A stretch of DNA of 64,000 bases from Methanocaldococcus sp. 16A (GTDB taxonomy: Archaea > AGJL01 > Methanococci > Methanococcales > Methanocaldococcaceae): the NCBI GenBank assembly GCA_049860595.1, contig CP187551.1. One strand, written 5' to 3'. The notes below the pieces were generated by a model that searched no databases, was not told where the DNA came from, and saw nothing but the letters and a program-made list of their open reading frames with translations. Of this stretch, positions 15,805-53,918 are shown in pieces; position 1 is the stretch's first letter, and each line of letters opens with the position of its first letter. Made by a program: the position numbers and the translations under genes.

Positions 15805-16299
15805 ATGATTATTAAAGGAAGTGTTCATAAATTTGGGGACGATGTAGATACAGATGCAATAATCCCAGGACCTTATTTGAGAACTACAGACCCTTATGAA
15901 TTAGCTTCACACTGTATGGCAGGGATTGATGAAAATTTCCCAAAAAAAGTTAAAGAGGGAGATGTAATAGCTGCAGGAGAAAACTTTGGATGCGGTTCAA
16001 GTAGAGAGCAAGCAGTAATAGCAATAAAATACTGTGGAATTAAAGCAGTTATAGCTAAAAGTTTTGCAAGAATATTTTATAGAAATGCCATAAATATTGG
16101 ATTAATCCCTATTATTGCTAATACTGATGAGATTGAAGATGGTGACATAGTTGAGATTGATTTAGATAGAGAGGAAATTAAAATAATCAATAAAAACAAA
16201 ACAATAAAATGTGAAACACCAAAAGGTTTAGAAAGAGAGATTTTAAATGCAGGAGGATTAGTTAATTATTTAAAACTAAAAAAAGGTGTAAAGGTATGA
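15805..16299 (+). CDS. aksE: Homoaconitase small subunit (LeuD paralog)
   Basis: [15 protein letters not shown] (YLRT loop of methanogen homoaconitase), NFGCGSSRE. Confidence 0.85.
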
Positions 16300-16790
16300 T
16301 GTTAGAGTTAAATGGATTGCATGCTGGTTTAAGATTTTCTTCAGCTCATATTGTATTTGGACATCCAACTTGTGGAGTAATACATGGACATTCTTATTAT
16401 GTAGATGTAAAACTCTATGGAGATAGAGCTGGAGAGTTCAGATTTGTTTGTGATTTTAAAATAATTAAAAAGATTGTAAAAGAGATTTGTAATAAATTAG
16501 ACCACAAATTAATACTTCCAAAAAATCATGAAAAGGTTTATTATGAGTTAATGGACAAAACCTTATACTTTAAATATGAGAATAAAGAATACAGTATTCC
16601 TGTTGAGGATGTTATACTTTTGCCTATTCCATCCACCACGTCTGAAGATTTGGCAGTATATTTTGCTAATGAAATAGCAGATAGATTAAAAAATCTCGGT
16701 TTTTCAAATATAACATGGATAGAGGTCTCTATCAACGAGGGAATAGGGCAGGGAGCTTGCTATAGAAAATACTTAAAAGAGGTGAAATAA
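16296..16790 (+). CDS. queD: 6-carboxytetrahydropterin synthase (PTPS family)
   Basis: FSSAH...CGVIHGHSY, DF, LDH, TSE motifs. Confidence 0.85.
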   Translation: MMLELNGLHAGLRFSSAHIVFGHPTCGVIHGHSYYVDVKLYGDRAGEFRFVCDFKIIKKIVKEICNKLDHKLILPKNHEKVYYELMDKTLYFKYENKEYSIPVEDVILLPIPSTTSEDLAVYFANEIADRLKNLGFSNITWIEVSINEGIGQGACYRKYLKEVK

Positions 16791-43688: not shown

Positions 43689-44849
43689 TTATTTTTCCCC
43701 TCCTCCATGCTTACTTTTTCTTGGTCTTATTTTTATGATTTTTAGAAATTCTTTTTCATCATCTATAAAGACACATTCTCCTTTATTTAAATCTTTAATA
43801 TACACTTTTAATTCTTTTCCCATATATTCCTGGTTGAGTTTGTTTAATGCATTTATATCTTCTCTATTTGTTACTTTATGTGCAAAAATAATATCACATT
43901 GACTTAAAACCTCATTGTCAATTGCTGAGGGTTGTTGAGTAGCTATAACTAAATTTAATCCTGGCTGTCTTCCTTCCTTTGCCCATCTTATTAATATTTC
44001 TTTTGACAATGTTGATTTTCCAGAAGGAATGAAATTGTGTGCCTCATCAATAAACATCCAAACTTTCGGCATTTTTGATGGTAAATTTAACATTTCCTTT
44101 TTTCTTGATTTCAATCGTTGATTAAATAGATACTTTGCAATTATTGATACAATTAAATCTCTCAATCCGTATCTTCCACTTTCAATAACACTCAAATCAA
44201 TAACATTTATTGCGTTTCTTTCAAAAATTTCTTCTATTGGTATATATTCATCTGAAAAAATACCCCATTTTTTTGCCATATTTAGACGGTTAATTAATGC
44301 TTCTTTTGTGGTTTCTTTTGATTTTGTATCCCTTTCTACTTCATAAATGATATCATCAATTGTAAAAAAATCTTTTTTAATATTATCAATTGCTCTATAT
44401 AATGCGATTCCCATCATTTCATTTATATTCAAATTAAATAGATCACACCATCCTTCTGCTGAAATATCTGATGGATTTAACAAAAGTTTTTTGAATTCTA
44501 CTCCTCTATTTTTCATTTCTCTTATAACATCTTCATCAAATCTTTTGTCTATTTCTCCAGGAACTATCAATTTTACAGGATATCTTTCTGGATATAAATC
44601 CCAATCCCAAAGGTTTTCTTCTTGTTCTTCATTAGGCTCTACCATAGTCCAAAATATCCCCATCGGATCAATTATAATCTTTAAATAATCTGGATGTTTT
44701 TCTTGAATTTCTTCAACTAAAACTCCCAATGTATAGCTTTTTCCACTACCTCTTTTACCACAAATAAAAATTGCATGAGATTTTGAAGCATCTATATAAA
44801 CATCTTCTCCTAACATATCTTTTAGTTTTTCTCTTCCAATAAATAACAT
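43689..44849 (-). CDS. HerA/FtsK-family (DUF87-like) ATPase
   Basis: GKRGSGKSYT, IIIDPMG, FIDEAHNF, EGRQPG arginine finger, ATQQP. Confidence 0.9.
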   Translation of the reverse strand: MLFIGREKLKDMLGEDVYIDASKSHAIFICGKRGSGKSYTLGVLVEEIQEKHPDYLKIIIDPMGIFWTMVEPNEEQEENLWDWDLYPERYPVKLIVPGEIDKRFDEDVIREMKNRGVEFKKLLLNPSDISAEGWCDLFNLNINEMMGIALYRAIDNIKKDFFTIDDIIYEVERDTKSKETTKEALINRLNMAKKWGIFSDEYIPIEEIFERNAINVIDLSVIESGRYGLRDLIVSIIAKYLFNQRLKSRKKEMLNLPSKMPKVWMFIDEAHNFIPSGKSTLSKEILIRWAKEGRQPGLNLVIATQQPSAIDNEVLSQCDIIFAHKVTNREDINALNKLNQEYMGKELKVYIKDLNKGECVFIDDEKEFLKIIKIRPRKSKHGGGEK

Positions 44850-44852
44850 AAT

Positions 44853-45803
44853 CTACCCCTCAATAATAATTAAAGGCACAAAACACTCCTCAAATGATAT
44901 ATTTCCATGAGAACCTTTTTTATATTTTTTTGTAAAATTCCACTTTATACCATGATCAGCTGTAATTACTATAAGATAAGACTGATTTGTTTGATTTAGA
45001 ATATCTATTAAGAGGTTTATATTTTCAAAGATTTCTTTTATTCTATTAATTATTCTTTTTTTACTAACTTCCCTTAATTTATGTGCATCATCATCTAATC
45101 CAATTTTGTAAATTTGAATATATTTTTTTGATAGTTTATTTTTAGATATTATATTATAAATGTCCTCATCATAATGAAAAATGTTCTTTTCACTTATATA
45201 TCTAAATAAAATATCGGTTAATGTATTTTTTCTATTCCAATATGTTTGTCCATATCCTTTATATCCAATCTTATAAAGTTCCTTTGCAATAGGTATGCCA
45301 TTTTTTCCATAAACTATATTTTTAAGCCCATTTTCAGTCGTAGTTTTTCCATTAACAAATATAGGTTCAGCACTATAATTTATGTCTGCATTTATATAAT
45401 CCCAGTAAGATAATCCATCAATAAGATACAATATAACTGTTTTTGGGGTTTTAGTATTAACATAATTAATGATATAATCTTTAACATCTTTTTGTGTTCT
45501 AACATACTTTTCAATTAAATTATATTTTTCATTAATAATTTTATTTAATTCTGGTGTAAAAGGATTATGGTCTATTTCATAAATAGGTAGCCTATAGTCA
45601 AATTTATCAGTTATAACAAATTTTTTTTGAGGAAGTTCTTTATTTGGATTATCAACCATTAACCAAAAATCATTATATGAGATATCTTCAAAATCAAAAA
45701 ATAGAAGAGAAAGTTTATGTTTTATTTTTAAGTAACATGGAGTTTTTATCTTTTTTATTTCTTCCTTACAATTATTTCTACATTCTCCATATTCAATAGA
45801 CAT
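44853..45803 (-). CDS. PglZ-like alkaline-phosphatase-superfamily phosphoesterase
   Basis: LYLIDGLSY, LDDDAH, VITADHG and HGNISFEECFVPLIII, in PglZ order; start uncertain. Confidence 0.8.
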   Translation of the reverse strand: MSIEYGECRNNCKEEIKKIKTPCYLKIKHKLSLLFFDFEDISYNDFWLMVDNPNKELPQKKFVITDKFDYRLPIYEIDHNPFTPELNKIINEKYNLIEKYVRTQKDVKDYIINYVNTKTPKTVILYLIDGLSYWDYINADINYSAEPIFVNGKTTTENGLKNIVYGKNGIPIAKELYKIGYKGYGQTYWNRKNTLTDILFRYISEKNIFHYDEDIYNIISKNKLSKKYIQIYKIGLDDDAHKLREVSKKRIINRIKEIFENINLLIDILNQTNQSYLIVITADHGIKWNFTKKYKKGSHGNISFEECFVPLIIIEG

Positions 45804-48800
45804 TTTAATGTCCCCTCAATAGACATATTTAGATGTTTTGCAATATCTTTAATTGAAATTTCACCATATTTATTCAATAACTCAATTATTTTCATTTCTT
45901 CTTCTTTTAACTTACCAAATCTATTTTTTTCAATAATTTCTCTCTTTATCTCTTTTCTAACTTTATCTAACTCTCCCCATATTTCAAGTATATTAGATTT
46001 TACTTCTTCAATAACATTTACTATATTATCAATATTATCTTTATTTATAACATCAATATCTATGCTATTTAATTTATTTTCTATTTCATTTAGTGTTTTT
46101 AGATAGTTTTCATCATTGTCCAATTTTATTTCTACGTCTGTCTTTAATGATACTATGTAATCATATATTCTGTTTAAAACATCTTGAAGATACGTTCTTA
46201 CATTTCTTACGAGATTTTGATAAGCTATATCTCTATCTTCAATAGTAATTGGTTCTCTGTATGAATATGAAGGGATATCTAACAATTTTAATGTATTGGA
46301 CAAAAAGTTCATTTTTGTTTTGATTTCATCTTGAATCCTATTAAATTCATTTCTTAAATTACTCTCTTTTTTCTTTATGTCTTTTTCGATTAACTCTATA
46401 TCTTTTTCAACATCTTTATCCATGTATAAATAGTTTTCACCATCTCTTGCAAAGTTAGTTATTATTTCATTTATTAATTCGTTAAATCTTTCATACTCTT
46501 CATCAATGTCAATATACTCCTTATAAGCATCTATTTTTTCATATAATTCTTTTAATTTTCTAAGAATAACTAACCAAGATTTAAACTTGTTATATTTCTC
46601 ATTGATATTGACATATTCCTTTTTTAATTCATTCATTTTTTTATTAGCTATTTTTAAAACTTCAGCAAGATTTTCAAGATCTCTTGAAGATGTTATAGTT
46701 TCTCTTAATTCTAATAACTCTTTTGATAGTATATTACATTTCTTTTTTGTTATCTTTATTTGTTCCTCTAAATGTCTAACTATCCCCCCTAACGCATAAT
46801 GTGTCTTTGTAATATCCTCTTTTAAATCTTCTATTTTTCTTTTTAGTTCATTAGTTTTTTCTCCTGTTTTTAAAATTTCATTTAACAATTCTTCCTTATT
46901 TTTAGTTATCTCATTTTTAATTATTTCGTAATATCCTCTTAAAGTTCTCTCCCAACTTTCTAAAAGTTCTAAGTCTTTGTATAATAAATCAGAATTTTTC
47001 TGATTCAGAATCTCTTCTTTTTTAGATAGATTTATAGGAATCTTTGGAATATCCTTTCCATATTTTTTATAGAGATTTACAACATTCCTTGCAAGTTTTT
47101 CAACTTCATCAAATTTATTTAAAACATCAGTATTTGTTATCTCCTCAAGCTTAAATATAAATCCTTTATCGATTTCAATATATCTTCTACTTTCAAGGAT
47201 TTTTAAAATTTCTTTAACTTCATCTTCAGTATATCCTAAAGACATTCCATACTTAATTATTTCATCCATATGTATTGGTTGCGTCCATTTTTCAATAAAT
47301 TCTTTTAATATTTTTTCTTCAAGTGAATGTTTTTTTAATCTAACTATAATTTTATCTTTTTTACCCCACTCTTCTAAGTGTATTAAATCCTTCCATTTTC
47401 CACTTTTACACTCTTCATCGAACCCTGCAACACTTGGATTTTTACTACCAGTTAATTTGGAAACTAAGTCCTTTTTAGTAGTTTCGAATTTGTCACCTCT
47501 TCTCTTTGAGATCGGTAATGATTCTAATAATATTCTATATCTTTCTAAATCTCTTTGCCAGTTTGTAGAATGGATTAAAGTTCTATAATCTTTAAATTTA
47601 TATTCACAAATTCTATTAAATATTTCTTCAACCATCTTTTCTAATCGTGCCTTTAACTCATATTTTTCTGCTAATTCATCTGAGAACAAAAATCTTTTTA
47701 AATATCTTATAAGAAGTGACTTTAATGAATCTATTTCACCCTTATATTTTATGTAATCCCCTTCTTTTTCTTTAATTTTGTCAAGATAATCTAAGAGACA
47801 CAGCATAAACATTGGAGTAACTTCTTGTGGTTTAACATACTGTTGAAGTTTTTTTAACTCACCAGGCAAATTATTCTCTCCAACTCTCTTTAAAACATTA
47901 AATTTAAAGATTACATCTCCATTTTTATAGTCAATTATTAAATCATTATTTTCTATATTTTTATCTAATATAAATTTAAACTCAATATCTGGTGAAATAT
48001 CACCTACTAAATTTTTAATAAACTCCATACCTATTTCTCCAGGTTCTTTCTTTAAAGAATATACACTAACAGTTCTAAATGGATATTTCTTATTAAAAGT
48101 CCCAGTTAATAAATGATAATATCCATAGTTTATAGGATATTTTAAATCGAATCTCCACCCTATAATTTGAGATCCTTTTTTCTTTGGAAAGATTTCAGGT
48201 AATAAATGATTTATAAATGCATTAATCATTTCATCTTCCCAAGATTCATCAAATACATGTCTAAATTTTCTTATGTGTTGTTCTACATAACTACCAGAAC
48301 TTTCGTCTAATAATCCTCTTAATGTATATCCTTCAAGGGCATAAACAATTTCAGTTCCATAATAAGCATCTGAAAGTTCTTCAAACTCATTATATAAGCT
48401 ATACTTTTTTATTAAATCATCAGATACTCCTCTTGGAAATGCTCCCAACAATTTAGTAACTTTTCTTTTTTCTTCAGAATTAACTTTACTTAGAGACAAA
48501 CCTTCATTTAAAGCATCTAAATATTTTTGTTGTATATATGCAATTTTGCCATTTAAGATATCATCAACAAAATCAAATACAGAATAGGGTTCTAATTTTT
48601 CTTTATATTTTGTGCAAGCACATTTAAATGCTCCAATAACTGTCCTTGGACCTTTACCTAAATCATCTCTTGAAGAGATCTCACCAATACTTCTTAAACA
48701 GTCCTTTGTTATAATTTCATAAGGATAAAACCCTAAAAGTTCGCCATATTTGTTCCACAATTTTTCTGCAAAGTCTACATTATATATATTTACTAAATTT

Positions 48801-49594
48801 AAATAGAATCCATCTTTTCGTAATCTATCAATTAAATCTCCAGCTCTTATGCTTAAATCCTCTTCTTGATAATCTGGAATTATAAACAATATCCCCAATC
48901 CTATATTACTAATACTAAGTTCAAAAATAAAATTTCTTAAATCGTTAATAATTTCCATATTGTTTATTCCTTGCACTTCATCTACAAAAATTGCTAATCC
49001 GTCATAATGTTCTTTTATAAGATCATATATTTCCTTTAAAAAATTCATTAGGTCTTTTGGGGTTATTGATATAATTAATTTACCTTTTTCTATGAAACTA
49101 TTAATTATTCTTCTAGCTTCATCTTTTGTTAAGTGTTCTTTTTTTGCTAACTCATCAATCTCTTTTTCTATACTTAATGTTTTATATTTTCTATAAATTT
49201 CTTCAATTTTTTCAACATATTCGGGATATTTATATTTATAAACATACTTTGTCCAACCATAAACTGCATCCATGATTGTATCAAGTTTTCTATCGAACTT
49301 AAATGGGGGAATAGATAATATATTATTATTTTTGCAATATTCCCATAAACTCAGTGCCTTACTTGTCTTTCCATATCCATAAGGAGCAGATATATATCCT
49401 TTAACAGTTTTTCCTTTTTTAATTTCTTTTACAAATCTACGATCAAAGTCTTCATCATCAACTTTTATATATGTTTTTAAATGTTTTTCATAATTATCTG
49501 CAACTAAATCAGGATTGTTTATTAAATTTTCAACTGACTGAGTATCCACTACAGGACTCTTATTTATTATATATTCTAATGCACTAATATCCAT
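45755..49594 (-). CDS. Large P-loop ATPase with long coiled coil (BrxC/PglY-like)
   Basis: Walker A APYGYGKTS, Walker B AIFVDEVQ, GPRTVI; K/E-rich helical C-terminal half; terminal HTH-like ISIKDIAKHLNMS. Start placed at ATG 49594 after a GGGGGAGGG RBS. Confidence 0.75.
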   Translation of the reverse strand: MDISALEYIINKSPVVDTQSVENLINNPDLVADNYEKHLKTYIKVDDEDFDRRFVKEIKKGKTVKGYISAPYGYGKTSKALSLWEYCKNNNILSIPPFKFDRKLDTIMDAVYGWTKYVYKYKYPEYVEKIEEIYRKYKTLSIEKEIDELAKKEHLTKDEARRIINSFIEKGKLIISITPKDLMNFLKEIYDLIKEHYDGLAIFVDEVQGINNMEIINDLRNFIFELSISNIGLGILFIIPDYQEEDLSIRAGDLIDRLRKDGFYLNLVNIYNVDFAEKLWNKYGELLGFYPYEIITKDCLRSIGEISSRDDLGKGPRTVIGAFKCACTKYKEKLEPYSVFDFVDDILNGKIAYIQQKYLDALNEGLSLSKVNSEEKRKVTKLLGAFPRGVSDDLIKKYSLYNEFEELSDAYYGTEIVYALEGYTLRGLLDESSGSYVEQHIRKFRHVFDESWEDEMINAFINHLLPEIFPKKKGSQIIGWRFDLKYPINYGYYHLLTGTFNKKYPFRTVSVYSLKKEPGEIGMEFIKNLVGDISPDIEFKFILDKNIENNDLIIDYKNGDVIFKFNVLKRVGENNLPGELKKLQQYVKPQEVTPMFMLCLLDYLDKIKEKEGDYIKYKGEIDSLKSLLIRYLKRFLFSDELAEKYELKARLEKMVEEIFNRICEYKFKDYRTLIHSTNWQRDLERYRILLESLPISKRRGDKFETTKKDLVSKLTGSKNPSVAGFDEECKSGKWKDLIHLEEWGKKDKIIVRLKKHSLEEKILKEFIEKWTQPIHMDEIIKYGMSLGYTEDEVKEILKILESRRYIEIDKGFIFKLEEITNTDVLNKFDEVEKLARNVVNLYKKYGKDIPKIPINLSKKEEILNQKNSDLLYKDLELLESWERTLRGYYEIIKNEITKNKEELLNEILKTGEKTNELKRKIEDLKEDITKTHYALGGIVRHLEEQIKITKKKCNILSKELLELRETITSSRDLENLAEVLKIANKKMNELKKEYVNINEKYNKFKSWLVILRKLKELYEKIDAYKEYIDIDEEYERFNELINEIITNFARDGENYLYMDKDVEKDIELIEKDIKKKESNLRNEFNRIQDEIKTKMNFLSNTLKLLDIPSYSYREPITIEDRDIAYQNLVRNVRTYLQDVLNRIYDYIVSLKTDVEIKLDNDENYLKTLNEIENKLNSIDIDVINKDNIDNIVNVIEEVKSNILEIWGELDKVRKEIKREIIEKNRFGKLKEEEMKIIELLNKYGEISIKDIAKHLNMSIEGTLKCLLNMENVEIIVRKK

Positions 49595-50081
49595 ATACCC
49601 TCCCCCTAAAAATTTTCCATAAATCAATATTTGAATTTTGAATACTAACATTTATATTTTTTCCAATAATTGGAGATAAATTATTCAACACTTGTTTCAC
49701 ATCATATAAATCCAATTTTAGCTCCACTCCATAATCTAAAATTTTCTCTTTTGAGATATATATTACTTTTTTTGCTTTTAGAGAGACCATTCTTCTTACT
49801 TCTCTCCAATCATACAATGTTCCATTATCAATAATTACATTTATATTTCTTGCATTATAATTTTTAAATATTTCTTCATTTTCAAAATATACAAAGTTAT
49901 TATTTTTTGCAAATACCCATCCTAAAAATGTCTTTCCTACGCCTTTTTTTCCATAAAGATTAACAACATCATCATAAATAAGAAATTCTTTCAATTTTTT
50001 ATAAGCTTTTTTTTGGTTATGAGTTAGCCAATCATAAGAATAATTAGTTTTGATATAATTTATTAATGAAATATAATCCAT
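49584..50081 (-). CDS. Small P-loop NTPase-fold protein (BrxB-like position)
   Basis: VVNLYGKKGVGKTF Walker A; VIIDN Walker B lacking the catalytic Glu. Confidence 0.7.
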   Translation of the reverse strand: MDYISLINYIKTNYSYDWLTHNQKKAYKKLKEFLIYDDVVNLYGKKGVGKTFLGWVFAKNNNFVYFENEEIFKNYNARNINVIIDNGTLYDWREVRRMVSLKAKKVIYISKEKILDYGVELKLDLYDVKQVLNNLSPIIGKNINVSIQNSNIDLWKIFRGRVYGY

Positions 50082-50089
50082 AATCTCCC

Positions 50090-50830
50090 CTATAATATAT
50101 CCTCAAAAGTCCATGTTCTTTTTAATCGTACATACTTTCCAAACATTTTTATTGAAATCTCAACAAAATCATAGATGAAATCAAGATCTTTCAAGAGATT
50201 ATCTAATGCTTTATCTTCAATCAAGCAAAACTTACAGAGTTCTTCAATTTTATTCTCATCTAAAAGCATTAATGAACCGTATTCCTCTCCCCACTGTTTT
50301 TTATATAAGTAATCAATACCCCATAATAATAGATGTAGTTGGCAGTAATCTCTAAGGTTAAACACATTATTTTCATCAATTGGAGATGGATAAAGTGACT
50401 TAATAAAGTTAATTGCTCCACGAACACTATTACTACTAAATGATATACTACCAAATCCTTCATCAAATGCTCTTTCTTTAACTTTTTGTTCAATATCGTT
50501 ATGATTTATTTTTTTACCCATATATTCTTCCCATAATATGTTAATTACACATCTATATGACCATCCTATTGGAGAGGTGGAAGTATAAAGTTTATAGTGA
50601 AGATAATTATTAAACATCTCATCATCCATTTTTAAAATATTTTCAATTTCATTATTATCTTTAACATTTATTAACTTGTTCATAATTGTATAGTTATCAT
50701 CTATTATGCTTGATTTAATTTCCGGAAATATTTTCTTTAATTCAGATTTTTTTAAATTATTCCCATATTCAAGAAATTTTCTTATAATTTCTGGCTTAGC
50801 GTTATGTTGAATATGGAAACTACCTTTCAT
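50090..50830 (-). CDS. Hypothetical protein (BrxA/DUF4007-like position, possibly wHTH DNA-binding)
   Basis: 246 aa ORF with ATGA overlap to the TGT gene; family inferred from position and size only. Confidence 0.55.
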   Translation of the reverse strand: MKGSFHIQHNAKPEIIRKFLEYGNNLKKSELKKIFPEIKSSIIDDNYTIMNKLINVKDNNEIENILKMDDEMFNNYLHYKLYTSTSPIGWSYRCVINILWEEYMGKKINHNDIEQKVKERAFDEGFGSISFSSNSVRGAINFIKSLYPSPIDENNVFNLRDYCQLHLLLWGIDYLYKKQWGEEYGSLMLLDENKIEELCKFCLIEDKALDNLLKDLDFIYDFVEISIKMFGKYVRLKRTWTFEDIL

Positions 50831-51753
50831 TCTTTCACCATTTCATATAGGACAATTATATTATGTAATGATCTATATATTTTAAATTTTCTTAAATTAT
50901 TTAAATTTTTACAAAAGTAACACTCATGACCATTTCTAAGATTTTCAATTAAATAATCATATCCAATATAATTTTTTTGTGAAGTTCTTGGAGATTTGCC
51001 AGTTATATTAATAGTTCGTGAATTGGGAAAATATATATCTCCGAATCCACTTGCCTTATCCCAACTACTACTATCAAAACTATCTACATAATCTTTAATT
51101 TTATTTACAGAACTACCTCCACCAATCCCAAAAGCATGTAATTCAAATCCATAATCTTTTGCTAACATAGATAGATACTTTAAATTTTCCAAACTTTCTT
51201 TAGTTAATCTGTTAATTTGATTATTTTTTCCACAAGTACCAAAACTTCCAAAACCTAATCGTCTAACATTTAAATCTGCATAATTTTTAACACAATAATA
51301 TATCATCTCTTTATTAATTCCCTGAACTACAGGAACAAATTTTTTTTCTAATTTTCCGTTAAACTCTTCAGCAAAACTCTTTGCAAAATAAACTGTCTCA
51401 TAAACTTTTCCCCATGCAGTCTCTACATTATCAGATGAAACTGGTGGAGAATCTGGTAGAACATACCAATCTCCCCATTTATTATTTTCATAAAATTTTC
51501 TCAAAAATGAAAATAGTTGATGTATTTCAAACTTCCCTTGTTGAACATAGTATCCTCCACTATCAAACATAACAGTTGTTTTATATTTTTTCTTTAAATT
51601 TTTAATTTCCTGTATAGTTCCTTCTGATGAAACTATCGGAGTAAAGATTACATTTTCAAATGCCCATTTTTTTGGCTCATGTTTCTTTAAAAGTTCAACC
51701 ATTCTCCTAATCTGACCTGGGGAAATCGTCAATGATGCATAAAATTCCACCAT
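50827..51753 (-). CDS. tRNA-guanine-transglycosylase-fold protein (TGT/DpdA-like)
   Basis: MFDSGGY, LPDSPP, VPVVQG, LGFGS, LHAFGIG, DSFDSSSW, and Zn-site-like HECYFC...HN. Confidence 0.82.
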   Translation of the reverse strand: MVEFYASLTISPGQIRRMVELLKKHEPKKWAFENVIFTPIVSSEGTIQEIKNLKKKYKTTVMFDSGGYYVQQGKFEIHQLFSFLRKFYENNKWGDWYVLPDSPPVSSDNVETAWGKVYETVYFAKSFAEEFNGKLEKKFVPVVQGINKEMIYYCVKNYADLNVRRLGFGSFGTCGKNNQINRLTKESLENLKYLSMLAKDYGFELHAFGIGGGSSVNKIKDYVDSFDSSSWDKASGFGDIYFPNSRTINITGKSPRTSQKNYIGYDYLIENLRNGHECYFCKNLNNLRKFKIYRSLHNIIVLYEMVKE

Positions 51754-51755
51754 TT

Positions 51756-52337
51756 TTACCCCTCTAAATATTTAGCCATTAATACTAAATCCTTATTACC
51801 TCTTGTATGGTTTTTTAAAATACCTTCAATTATAAAACCATTTTTTATAAAAAATCTAAGCCCTCCTTCATTATCTTTAGGAACCTCGGCATATATCTTT
51901 TTCTTTTTTAATTTTTTAGCTTTTTTTTCCAAAAAGTCAATAAAATATATACCAAGAGATTTATTTTTAAATTTTTTATCTATTGCAATATAATTAATTT
52001 TTAGATAATTTGGTTTTTCTCCATAAACTACAACACCAATCAAATCATTTTTATGGAAAATTCCTGCTACATTTATAGTTTTAGAGGTCGTAATCCATTG
52101 CTTTATTGATGATTTATAAACAAAGCCCCAAATATCTGCATAATTTAACAATATCTCTTGAACCCTGTCAACATAATTAACATCATCAATATCTTTAACT
52201 ATAATTTTATTTTTAATTTTTTCTATTTGTTTCGATGACTTTTTGTTTTTATTTTTGTTATTACTTTCAATTAATTCAAATTTTTTATATAAATCATAAA
52301 TTTCAAAGATTATTTTTTGTTGCGTATTCAAGCCCAT
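51756..52337 (-). CDS. GNAT-family acyltransferase
   Basis: INYIAIDKKFKNKSLG motif A; DNEGGLRFFIKNGFIIEG motif B. Confidence 0.88.
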   Translation of the reverse strand: MGLNTQQKIIFEIYDLYKKFELIESNNKNKNKKSSKQIEKIKNKIIVKDIDDVNYVDRVQEILLNYADIWGFVYKSSIKQWITTSKTINVAGIFHKNDLIGVVVYGEKPNYLKINYIAIDKKFKNKSLGIYFIDFLEKKAKKLKKKKIYAEVPKDNEGGLRFFIKNGFIIEGILKNHTRGNKDLVLMAKYLEG

Positions 52338-52983
52338 ATTTTCTCGCCCCTATTGCATTTATAAATTGTGGATTTTTAGGAATATAAACATCTTTTTCAG
52401 TAATTTCCTTAAAATATTTCACGAATGCCTCATTTTCTGCAACTCCTCCAATCAAGGCAATAGTATCGCATTCAAATGGGTTCATGTTAGCTATTTTCTT
52501 TGCTATAGTGTAATTTACAGATGATATAATATCTCTGATAGTATAGCCATTCACAAGGTAGTTAATTATTTCAGAAATTGAAAAAACAGCACAAGTGTTA
52601 TTTAATTTTAATGGATTTTTTGAGTAATATTTTCCAAAGTTCTCTATAGGAACATCTAAATACATGGCTATAGTTTGCAAAAATAGTCCAGTACCAGCTC
52701 CACATTTATCATTCATTACAAACTCTAATGTTTTTGTATTTATTATCTTTGTATCCTGTCCTCCAACATCAATTATAACATCAACTTCTTTATCAACACC
52801 GTATATAGCAGCAGTAATTTCAGTTATATGATTTCTAAATCTCTTTCTGAAATATCCTGTTGCGAAGACATCTCTATCATTATATTTCTCCAATATCTCG
52901 TTCAATTTAATTATGGAATATTTTTTGAAACCTTGCTCATCTGCAATTTTTATATTTGTTGAACCAACATCAATGCCTATCAT
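52303..52983 (-). CDS. Acyl-CoA dehydratase activator (HgdC/BadF-G type ASKHA ATPase, [4Fe-4S])
   Basis: GIDVGSTNIK, ATGY, DVGGQDTK, MNDKCGAGTG, CAVF, GGVAEN, NAIGA. Confidence 0.92.
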   Translation of the reverse strand: MIGIDVGSTNIKIADEQGFKKYSIIKLNEILEKYNDRDVFATGYFRKRFRNHITEITAAIYGVDKEVDVIIDVGGQDTKIINTKTLEFVMNDKCGAGTGLFLQTIAMYLDVPIENFGKYYSKNPLKLNNTCAVFSISEIINYLVNGYTIRDIISSVNYTIAKKIANMNPFECDTIALIGGVAENEAFVKYFKEITEKDVYIPKNPQFINAIGARKYGLEYATKNNL

Positions 52984-52985
52984 AA

Positions 52986-53918
52986 CTACCCCAACAACTC
53001 TATAAATGCTTCAATTCTCAGCTTTGTTTGTTCTGGTGTTTTTTGGGGGATGTCCCCCTCTATTGTTAGTATGGGATAATCAATAAATTCCCTAAGAATC
53101 TCATCTTCTAATTTATGATGACAATTCATTTGGGTATAATGAATTACTCCATCAACTTTTCTCTTTTTTAATTCTTTTTTTAGAATTTTTATTCTTTTAG
53201 TTATGTGATTTGCAAAACTGTATGTTGAATAACTATTTACTATACTCTTTATTGAATCTCCTCCCATTCTTACAAATTCATAAGCAAGTTCATTATAAAC
53301 ACAATGTACATTTATTTCATTTAAGTATTCATAAAAATCGCTAAAAATTGGTGGAATTCCTATTATAGCAATCCTATGTCTATATTCAATGTTTTCATCT
53401 TTGTTTAATATGTTATAGATTTCTTTTTTGTATGCATTTAAATCTCCTTTTAAATCACTTGCAGAAATTGTAATATAAAAGGCATCTTTTCCATTTATTT
53501 TGTCTTTATAGCATAATTCATCTACTTTTTTTGCAAGTTTTTTTATTTGATAAACTTCTCTTAAAGTAGTTTTATCAATATTTCCACCCAAAAAATTAAT
53601 AAGTTTTTTTATTTCATTTTCAAAATGTTTTTTATCTCCAAATTGATAAAAGAAATAATGTGTTGGAATTTTTTTCTTTAGTTCTATCTTTTCAGCATCA
53701 ACAAGAGAATTTTGACAATCACCTCCCGCAACAACAATTAATGTATCAATTTTAATTTCATCTTTTAAAATCAATTCTCTCCAAGTTGCAGTCCATGCAC
53801 ATAGTTTATTTTTAGGATAAATTTTCGATTGTGGAACTAAATTATTTAGATCTATAGGAGTATGACCTGCAGAATAAATAATTTCTGGTGGTACTATAGC
53901 AGTAATTCCAACTTTCAT
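52986..53918 (-). CDS. 2-hydroxyacyl-CoA dehydratase family protein (HGD-D)
   Basis: PPEIIYSAG, Cys in KLCAW / GGDCQN / QMNCHH, VDGVIHY, PILTIEGD...QTKLRIEAFIELL. Confidence 0.88.
   Translation of the reverse strand: MKVGITAIVPPEIIYSAGHTPIDLNNLVPQSKIYPKNKLCAWTATWRELILKDEIKIDTLIVVAGGDCQNSLVDAEKIELKKKIPTHYFFYQFGDKKHFENEIKKLINFLGGNIDKTTLREVYQIKKLAKKVDELCYKDKINGKDAFYITISASDLKGDLNAYKKEIYNILNKDENIEYRHRIAIIGIPPIFSDFYEYLNEINVHCVYNELAYEFVRMGGDSIKSIVNSYSTYSFANHITKRIKILKKELKKRKVDGVIHYTQMNCHHKLEDEILREFIDYPILTIEGDIPQKTPEQTKLRIEAFIELLG

Follow-up and report, generated by a model that had tools for sequence, protein, structure and literature searches.

What is an enzyme with the fold of a tRNA-guanine transglycosylase (TGT), but with no domain for holding tRNA, doing in an archaeon that already encodes a full-length TGT? 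The question is raised by one gene of Methanocaldococcus sp. 16A, found in a 64,000-nucleotide stretch of contig CP187551.1 (assembly GCA_049860595.1), the whole of which is called here the window:

50827..51753, minus strand: TGT-like base-exchange enzyme (the focal gene), an ATG-started open reading frame (ORF) of 308 aa

The initial annotation took the product for a stand-alone DNA guanine transglycosylase that uses the host's 7-cyano-7-deazaguanine (preQ0), or a derivative of it, in the manner of DpdA, the preQ0 insertase of the Dpd system. On closer inspection the gene does not stand alone. It lies in a conserved seven-gene operon related to the bacteriophage exclusion (BREX) systems, and its family has an obligate partner, a GNAT acetyltransferase. 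We consider it probable, with confidence somewhat better than even, that the GNAT and the TGT-like enzyme together constitute the DNA self-marking module of this BREX-related island, the mark being a preQ-series 7-deazaguanine that is possibly acylated.

Fold and kinship of the TGT-like protein

By sequence alone, the focal protein is a marginal TGT. It scores 17.6 bits (E 0.0022) on Pfam PF01702, short of the gathering cut-off of 26.3, and neither NCBIfam (E 0.01 or better) nor PADLOC gave a match. A search of the PDB with the single sequence returned no TGT, only SepRS at E 0.22; TGT matches required a profile. Relatives do exceed the PF01702 cut-off, for example a member from Haloplanus at 41.6 bits, and hhalign matches to tRNA TGTs reach probabilities of 95.1 and 96.5. 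The AlphaFold model, built from a 34-row alignment (A1), has a pLDDT of 90.5. Foldseek matched it to the TGT fold at E 6.9e-10 and to DpdA (7ui4) at E 4.6e-09, and VIA-align superposed it on the Zymomonas mobilis TGT (4fps; Z 23.9, root-mean-square deviation [rmsd] 3.0 Å, 281 residues) and on the archaeosine TGT (arcTGT) of Pyrococcus horikoshii (1iq8_A; Z 23.8, rmsd 2.8 Å, 269 residues). These alignments cover model residues 1-308, and the predicted structure leaves no doubt that this is the TIM-barrel plus zinc-subdomain fold of the TGTs.

The 308 residues align to the catalytic barrel and the zinc subdomain only, with no PUA or other C-terminal tRNA-binding domain, so that the initial description of a TGT-fold paralog with intact catalytic residues and no tRNA-binding tail was accurate. 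So was its remark that the housekeeping enzyme is much longer: the arcTGT of the same genome has 657 aa, with PUA-type C-terminal domains, and scores 673.2 bits on TIGR00432. The focal protein has no match to that archaeosine TGT model at E 0.01 or better (equivalog cut-off 350 bits). It shares with arcTGT (TgtA, 1iq8) the barrel and zinc subdomain, the FDS nucleophile motif and the zinc-site His of LHN, and differs from it in having neither the C-terminal domains nor the PUA.

The motifs expected of the fold are present. The translation contains FDSGG (D64), LPD (D101), VQG (Q144-G145), GFGSFGT (167-173), HAFG (H206-G209), SFDS (D227), GHECYFC (H276, C278, C281) and LHN (H297), which include each of the catalytic and base-pocket motifs first reported for it (the DSGG Asp, the SFDS Asp, QG and HxFG). 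In hhalign, D64 maps to the Asp of DSGG, D101 to the base-binding Asp of the DEC motif, Q144 to the Gln of QGG, D227 to the TGT nucleophile, and H276/C278/C281/H297 to the CxCxxC...H zinc site; the catalytic and base-binding roles of these positions, like the motif names, we take to be those of the Z. mobilis enzyme. Among 147 distinct relatives, drawn from 158 of 160 loci, D64, D101, D227, H276, C278, C281 and H297 are each kept in all 147, as are F168, G169, S170 and F171 of the GFGSF loop. Conservation of this kind is far beyond chance. What had been called a CxxC...H remnant is in fact a complete four-ligand zinc site, HxCxxC...H, with His in place of the first Cys of the tRNA TGTs. The invariant loop GFGSFGTxGxNxxxN occupies the place of the tRNA TGT loop that faces the 7-substituent of the base, and position 144 is His in 85 relatives and Gln in 62. 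In the profile alignment DpdA 7ui4 also carries His at this position, so that most members of the family resemble DpdA where tRNA TGTs have the base-pocket Gln.

DpdA is indeed the nearest named family by profile score. A profile search of the PDB ranked DpdA 7ui4 (E 0.0032) ahead of arcTGT (E 0.0055); the relative from locus L026 scores 33.7 bits on the DpdA model NF041059 and 25.7 on tgt_general; the PADLOC DpdA model matches a relative at 3e-08; and phage family phrog_887 matches the focal protein at 8.7e-06. These scores are far below membership, however. The two relatives scored on NF041059 reach 21.6 (L003) and 33.7 bits where the cut-off is 200, compared with 528-576 for three genuine DpdA sequences. 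The likeness to DpdA thus stands as that of the closest match, and the assignment to DpdA does not. Both enzymes have a TGT fold without tRNA-binding domains, encoded in a restriction-modification-like island. The present family is distinguished by its GNAT partner, its HxCxxC...H zinc site, its invariant loop and its lack of Dpd neighbors. A PADLOC scan of nine neighboring proteins gave only HerA/mad8-type matches and one weak CARF match, with no DpdB and no DpdC-K, in agreement with the initial statement that the dpdB-K genes are missing.

The phylogeny gives a similar picture. The tree comprised 46 rows: 25 genomic family members, one viral and one plasmid member, three DpdA, eight bacterial TGTs, two arcTGTs and six other paralogs. 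The 27 family rows form a single clade (SH-aLRT 99) whose stem measures 2.28 changes per site, separate from the canonical tRNA TGTs. DpdA forms a clade of its own (support 99, stem 2.37), and arcTGT and bacterial TGTs group together with support 97. The family joins DpdA with support of only 33, a placement that carries a long-branch warning. Judged by these sequences, it is a clade in its own right, neither tRNA TGT nor DpdA. The family is small: of 1.84 billion searched, 784 cluster representatives match at E 0.001 or better, and only 109 of them do so at 1e-30 or better. A further set of proteins, 340-390 aa long (P0193-P0225), matches the family profile over positions ~28-325 only, at E 1e-44 to 1e-30, and is possibly a sister family. 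Separate again are TGT paralogs of ~390 aa (L084-L086, and L088 at G025:C23:16771-18476) that score 80-88 bits on arcTGT and 21-24 on DpdA and cluster in the tree with support 83; one of them lies directly 3' of yhhQ in a Chloroflexota genome.

The operon, its GNAT partner and a viral copy

The focal gene is the second of seven minus-strand genes spaced by gaps or overlaps of a few bases. In order of transcription they are the following, the focal gene standing between the first two listed:

51756..52337, minus strand: GNAT acetyltransferase, 193 aa (PF00583, E 8e-08)
50090..50830, minus strand: SspB/BrxA-like multi-winged-helix DNA-binding protein, 246 aa (by fold match)
49584..50081, minus strand: small P-loop NTPase, 165 aa (Walker A GKKGVGKT)
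45755..49651, minus strand: BrxC-like large ATPase, 1298 aa, with a C-terminal winged helix (HTH_24 at residues 1253-1294)
44853..45803, minus strand: PglZ-like protein of the alkaline phosphatase superfamily, 316 aa (Phosphodiest, E 0.0031)
43689..44849, minus strand: HerA/FtsK-type ATPase, 386 aa (PADLOC HerA 6e-28, mad8 4.8e-25)

The GNAT is a constant companion of the TGT-like gene. Scanning the prokaryotes with a single genome for each species yielded 115 TGT-like relatives, for which 80 genome loci were kept. A hidden Markov model of the operon GNATs, searched on the same strand, found a GNAT at 66 of these 80; the remaining 14 all end before the end of the operon, so that every assessable locus (66/66) has one. 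Its placement varies. In 27 loci it is fused to the N-terminus of the TGT-like protein, in 18 it is separate and just upstream (in L061 as a weak fragment only), and in 21 it lies at the 3' end of the operon. Fusions also occur among database matches of 460-497 aa. The GNAT is thus an obligate partner of the TGT-like enzyme, and as a family it retains the RxxGxG acetyl-CoA loop (alignment A2). The predicted complex of the TGT-like protein (A1) with the GNAT (A2) scored 0.00 against a mark of 0.32, which weighs neither way.

The other members point to a BREX-like machine acting on DNA. No Pfam match was found for the 246-aa protein, which has a tblastn match at 73 of the 80 genome loci. Its model (pLDDT 92.9) matches SspB 6juf_B by VIA at Z 16.0 (rmsd 3.2 Å, 238 aligned) and BrxA 7zge_C at Z 11.3 (rmsd 3.5 Å, 173 aligned), the next match being at Z 8.3. 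The 165-aa NTPase has weak matches to nSTAND3 (E 0.0054, under the cut-off) and AAA_24, in the range E 0.005-0.008. As listed, the 1298-aa ORF overlaps the NTPase gene upstream by 68 nt, because of which its true start is probably the internal second Met at residue 20 (MDISALEY...). The window's own copy matches neither Pfam BrxC nor DUF6079. Two orthologs pass Pfam BrxC_BrxD (cut-off 22.2), those of L012 at 24.9 bits and Haloplanus at 27.3, with weak matches in two more, and RefSeq names the Haloplanus protein "BREX system ATP-binding domain-containing protein". Two matches of orthologs of the 316-aa protein to PglZ PF08665 (E 0.002 and 0.00067) fall short of the cut-off, and PADLOC PglZ matches the L026 protein at 8.6e-05. 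The HerA-type ATPase, by comparison, matches Pfam DUF87 at 4.7e-14 (53.4 bits, cut-off 23.2) and is 47-58% identical across phyla. A tblastn hit between PglZ-like and TGT-like proteins (L003; 28% over 104 residues) involves no common motif and does not recur in the window pair, and we ascribe it to chance.

An operon of this kind has been predicted before. BREX-Related Capture (BRC) was proposed by comparative genomics only (Nucleic Acids Res. 2026, PMC12839542; statements on BRC here refer to the passages of that paper available to us). Its components are PglZ, a BrxC-like DUF6079 protein, an active STAND NTPase, a BrxA-like DUF4007 protein, HerA/FtsK, GNAT and TGT. It occurs in 45 taxa of archaea and bacteria, HerA being universal and GNAT and TGT present in a subset, and GNAT and TGT, at times fused, are suggested to mark host DNA, perhaps with dPreQ0 (PMC12839542). 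Each of these seven kinds appears to have a counterpart in the window operon, and we therefore assign the operon to BRC, its apparent identity with the published loci resting on architecture; the system as such is already described in silico (PMC12839542). The two descriptions differ in several respects. The PglZ of those passages has an N-terminal inactive Swi2/Snf2 domain, whereas the PglZ-like proteins here have only 316-395 aa. Starting from the TGT-like protein, we find 115 relatives, a GNAT in 66/66 and seven loci without HerA, PglZ or NTPase. Moreover, dPreQ0 is the base proposed there, whereas queF genes embedded in loci of the present set point to the aminomethyl base preQ1. In a full-text literature search the phrase "BREX-related capture" occurred only in PMC12839542, and no experiment on a BRC-type system was found.

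A viral copy of the pair provides a simpler setting. In Thermocrinis Great Boiling Spring virus (TGBSV, BK013347.1, L101), a 135-aa GNAT gene is followed by a TGT-like gene of this family (39% identical to L026, E 2e-39) that nests inside the family clade in the tree. The pair lies directly upstream of genes for a sliding clamp, a helicase, a PD-(D/E)XK nuclease and PolA, without BREX-like genes, and this position beside replication genes fits a DNA-marking module. Phage DNA modification with 7-deazaguanines is known, and many phages protect their DNA in this way (PMC6884629 and PMC10516641, in the parts available to us); TGBSV bears its gene in a replication module, although that gene belongs to this family and not to phage DpdA. 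In the deposited assembly the TGBSV TGT-like gene is split by a frameshift (L101:3246-3956, L101:4357-5330), and the HxCxxC...H motif continues in the other frame. The gene just upstream of the viral GNAT encodes a SAVED domain (PF18145, 6.4e-15). Two further contigs labeled viral have the short form of the system, described below, or end inside the gene (L107 ends within the TGT-like gene), and Pfam gave nothing informative for the ORFs of L107 and L109.

In the scheme that we favor, the GNAT and the TGT-like enzyme would replace the methyltransferase of a BREX-related defense island. The TGT-like enzyme would form a covalent intermediate between its Asp227 and deoxyribose in the DNA of the host itself, release guanine and then insert a preQ-series 7-deazaguanine; in the Methanocaldococcus host, which has QueC and a PTPS and lacks QueF, preQ0 would be supplied by the host. 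The GNAT would acylate either the inserted base or the free precursor with acetyl-CoA, the likeliest acceptor being the aminomethyl group of preQ1. The BrxC-like protein, the NTPase and the SspB/BrxA-like protein may load or target this marking module, and the PglZ-like and HerA-like proteins would act on unmarked invading DNA.

The inserted base and competing explanations

The host supply of preQ0 was part of the original case, which pointed to a queD gene in the window:

16296..16790, plus strand: PTPS/QueD-family gene (PF01242, E 1.7e-20), host pathway, outside the island

That gene is as annotated, and the host pathway is borne out by QueC at G000:C1:267222-267878, with arcTGT and ArcS also encoded and no QueF in the genome (99.98% complete). 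The link of the TGT-like family to 7-deazaguanines is real as well; it comes from other loci, however, and not from a queD 34 kb away, and those loci indicate preQ1 at least as much as preQ0. On the Haloplanus plasmid NZ_CP098519.1, queC, queE and PTPS genes lie ~1 kb upstream of the system in divergent orientation, and the 132-aa gene directly after the GNAT is QueF (PF14489, 62 bits). On four metagenome contigs (L154, L156, L168, L174), queF is immediately upstream of the TGT-like gene; in L156 its ORF runs 4 nt into the start of the TGT-like one. On contigs that extend far enough, the operon ends with the GNAT. The four are one lineage, with 92-98% mutual identity and 47% to Haloplanus. Two translated operon QueF sequences have the Cys motif and the ExKSxKxY-type NADPH motif, which we take to be the mark of true preQ0 reductases. 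In four Chloroflexales loci (L043, L056, L078, L079), a yhhQ on the same strand ends the operon, with 128.8 bits on TIGR00697, "queuosine precursor transporter". The tally of embedded genes is therefore queF in five loci, queC/E/D in one and yhhQ in four. Searches by tblastn, with QueC from haloarchaea, bacteria and the host itself and with haloarchaeal QueE and QueD as queries, found no such gene within the 80 genome and 80 metagenome loci, the sensitivity for QueD and QueE across domains being limited, and yhhQ was found at 0/80 metagenome loci. QueF makes preQ1, which offers a GNAT an obvious acceptor in its aminomethyl group; for this reason a preQ1-derived and possibly N-acetylated base is a live possibility besides dPreQ0.

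Supply by the host is uneven. Full-length QueC (E 1e-20 or better) is present in 38 of 79 host genomes, a set that includes the unpublished genome G024, and a canonical TGT in 48 of 49 hosts. Since the other 41 lack QueC, de novo preQ0 synthesis does not travel with the system; 30 of these 41 carry a precursor transporter of the YhhQ family.

Several observations weigh against the scheme of self-marking with a 7-deazaguanine. The 41 hosts without QueC are mostly Chloroflexota and include complete chromosomes; 39 of them also lack QueF and two have it. About half of the hosts would therefore depend on salvage for the base, an odd arrangement for a self-mark. Where genomes are at chromosome level, QueC is at least 250 kb from the system, and queF, queC/E/D or yhhQ is embedded in only nine of ~165 loci, from three or four lineages. 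With no QueF in Methanocaldococcus sp. 16A, a preQ1-type amine for the GNAT is without a known source there. The window GNAT shares only 12-20% identity with the members of A2 from outside Methanocaldococcus and has Ser at the first Gly of the acetyl-CoA loop. The focal protein misses every curated family cut-off. Pfam DUF4007 matches neither the 246-aa protein nor 17 orthologs, which are BrxA-like by fold, and DUF6079 matches none of the 1298-aa-like proteins scanned. Finally, we infer DNA as the target from the gene neighbors only.

Could the target be RNA instead? A tail-less transglycosylase might have been recruited to alter host or viral tRNA, or another RNA, on infection. The fold is as near to the tRNA TGTs (the Z scores of 23.9 and 23.8 given above) as to anything, all tRNA TGT residues are kept, and JGI/Pfam-based annotation names the relatives queuine/archaeosine tRNA-ribosyltransferase. 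Nevertheless we hold this to be very unlikely: the 308 residues include neither a PUA nor a C-terminal domain for binding tRNA, arcTGT and ArcS are already encoded by the host and nearly all hosts have a canonical TGT, the family stands as a separate clade on a long stem, and its partners (the SspB/BrxA fold, the BrxC-like protein, HerA) handle DNA, as does the replication module around the viral copy. If the substrate is DNA, the enzyme might still be directed at the invader, either excising guanine to leave abasic sites or covalent adducts or swapping out phage 7-deazaguanines, with the GNAT in a regulatory role. TGT chemistry does run through a covalent enzyme-sugar intermediate (PDB 1q2r is among the structure matches), such an eraser would suit the half of hosts without de novo preQ0 synthesis, and there is a ready substrate in the many phages that shield their DNA with 7-deazaguanines (PMC6884629, in the part available to us). 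We give this effector role little credence, however, since the operon already has candidate effectors in the PglZ-like and HerA-like proteins, since the embedded queF, queC/E/D and yhhQ supply a base for insertion that an eraser would not need, and since a virus with the GNAT-TGT pair and no other components fits protective marking of its own DNA.

The identity of the base invites its own alternatives. Plain preQ0, as in Dpd and as suggested for BRC (PMC12839542, in the passages available to us), with the GNAT acting on a protein or on another DNA base, is the simplest. It agrees with a host that makes preQ0 and has no QueF, with DpdA as the nearest family, and with the dPreQ0 proposed in that paper. 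We nevertheless regard it as rather unlikely. Five loci embed a QueF with what is presumably the NADPH-type motif, and QueF is known to produce nothing but preQ1. In L156 queF extends into the TGT-like start, on the Haloplanus plasmid it follows the GNAT, and GNAT-TGT fusions in 27 loci argue for a common substrate. A base that is no 7-deazaguanine at all, a guanine-type base acylated by the GNAT with acyl-CoA and then inserted by the TGT-like enzyme, would make the pair self-sufficient in hosts without QueC. This would accommodate the strict co-occurrence and frequent fusion of the two proteins, the QueC-less hosts and the lack of QueF in nearly all of them, the lack of que genes in the 80 genome loci, and the invariant GFGSFGTxGxNxxxN loop where tRNA TGTs face the 7-substituent. 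It seems to us highly doubtful: the residues that presumably read the 2-amino and 6-oxo groups, as in the Z. mobilis TGT (D64, D101, Q/H144), are kept and leave little space for an N2-acyl group, and the queF, queC/E/D and yhhQ found within some operons would be hard to account for.

Within the favored reading, that of a GNAT-TGT module marking host DNA with a preQ-series base, the most specific form can also be stated. The pair would write an undescribed DNA base, N-acyl (probably N-acetyl) preQ1, that is, 7-(acetamidomethyl)-7-deazaguanine, with preQ1 reached by a different route in each lineage. The route would be host QueF in queuosine-making bacteria, yhhQ salvage in QueC-less Chloroflexota and the operon QueF in the Haloplanus plasmid lineage; in methanogens that, like this one, are strict anaerobes, the double-cubane-type reductase co-transferred with the island would serve, with its ATP-dependent activase, as a new QueF-independent preQ0 nitrile reductase. 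Methyl and formyl derivatives of preQ1 in phage DNA are precedents for N-substituted preQ1, and a literature search turned up no acetylated 7-deazaguanine DNA derivative. Taken jointly, base and routes, we think this proposal a long shot.

Distribution, mobility and meaning

Loci were classed by tblastn with the proteins of the window and of one Chloroflexota locus. Of the 80 genome loci, 46 have the complete six-gene core after the TGT-like gene, with gene order kept, and another 27 are truncated at contig ends. Seven are clear cases of a short form, which consists of the GNAT, the TGT-like gene and the SspB/BrxA-like and BrxC-like genes and has no NTPase, PglZ-like or HerA gene. The small NTPase is present in 45 of the 46 full loci and in none of the seven short ones. 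Short-form and variant loci are L019, L022, L024, L050, L052, L056 and L075, the plasmid NC_019763.1 (L102), the viral contig L109, and L028, L048, L055 and L058; some loci hold the BrxA-like and BrxC-like pair in two copies. The hosts are Methanococcales, Methanosarcina, Chloroflexota, Poribacteria, Latescibacterota, Gemmatimonadota, Armatimonadota, Bacillota, Ignavibacteriota and others. Methanocaldococcus indicus SL43 (L001) has a copy 89% identical to the focal protein. In Methanosarcinales only one of 121 genomes searched has the TGT-like gene, and a metagenome scan with the Haloprofundus protein P0018 gave no match.

Many bacterial loci have a large protein just upstream of the GNAT and TGT genes, with RNA polymerase alpha-CTD repeats, sigma-70 regions 2 and 4 and often HARE-HTH by Pfam (L026:7318-9561, L004:2786-5272, L008:6960-9995, L014:584-2665, L037:7356-9407, L043:4381-6147, L063:7085-9988, L054:18693-20042). 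It resembles the MzaA sigma factor of the MZA anti-phage system (NF041931, 1e-21) and has a tblastn match in 51 of the 80 loci, ~37 of them long, and in none of the archaeal ones. Some operons also have an additional nuclease-type gene: one with MrfA zinc-binding and DUF559/REase-like domains 3' of HerA at L026:18611-19861, and one with Mrr_N between the PglZ-like and HerA genes at L018:11674-12339.

In the Methanococcales the island is patchily distributed. The TGT-like gene is present in five of 40 genomes: this one, three of 16 congeners and one of 23 from the sister family. The Cbf5 and ArfA genes that flank the island are 11.6 kb apart here and 1.66 and 1.83 kb apart in two island-free congeners, and M. 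indicus has its island at another position. GC content is 0.245-0.265 across 44-54 kb of the window and about 0.30-0.38 in the flanks. The island is an insertion of ~10 kb. Two further genes of the same strand immediately precede the GNAT:

52303..52983, minus strand: acyl-CoA-dehydratase-activase-type ATPase (BcrAD/HgdC-like), 226 aa (PF01869, 5.9e-24)
52986..53918, minus strand: HGD-D/double-cubane-type reductase-like protein, 310 aa (PF06050, 7.1e-32)

The activase scores 132.6 bits on TIGR00241, over the cut-off of 125.4. The best NCBIfam name for the reductase-like protein is "double-cubane-cluster-containing anaerobic reductase", at 9.8e-12 and 44.6 bits against a cut-off of 350. Among the 40 Methanococcales genomes, the reductase-like gene is found in exactly the five that bear the TGT-like gene, always ~1.2 kb from it, apart from one 62-aa fragment elsewhere, and five Methanococcales-like metagenome contigs have the same arrangement. 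In Methanosarcina UBA7 (L003) the reductase/activase pair is at the opposite end of the operon, and in L116, a 63%-identical relative whose locus is likewise Methanosarcinales-like, a reductase-like gene lies 1.5 kb past HerA. That the gene is specific to the system is ruled out in Methanosarcinales, where 55 of 121 genomes have it, 54 of them without the TGT-like gene. The pair may be a hitch-hiker. It is speculation that it is the preQ0-reducing counterpart of QueF in a QueF-less anaerobe, an idea based on the chemistry of double-cubane reductases.

Relative to the passages of PMC12839542 available to us, the present analysis adds the strict coupling to the GNAT, the QueC-less hosts, the embedded queF, queC/E/D and yhhQ, the viral pair, the short form and the methanogen reductase pair. 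The embedded genes narrow the candidate base to a short list, and from the strict coupling to the GNAT one would expect DNA to contain one more 7-deazaguanine, acylated and possibly new. Cultured and genetically simple hyperthermophiles with the locus, such as M. indicus SL43, provide an experimental handle. If the favored reading is true, self DNA can be marked in BREX-type immunity by exchanging a base rather than by methylation, with two small enzymes that a virus has also borrowed; and the methanogen reductase and activase, if they are involved, would constitute a new enzyme route from preQ0 to preQ1.

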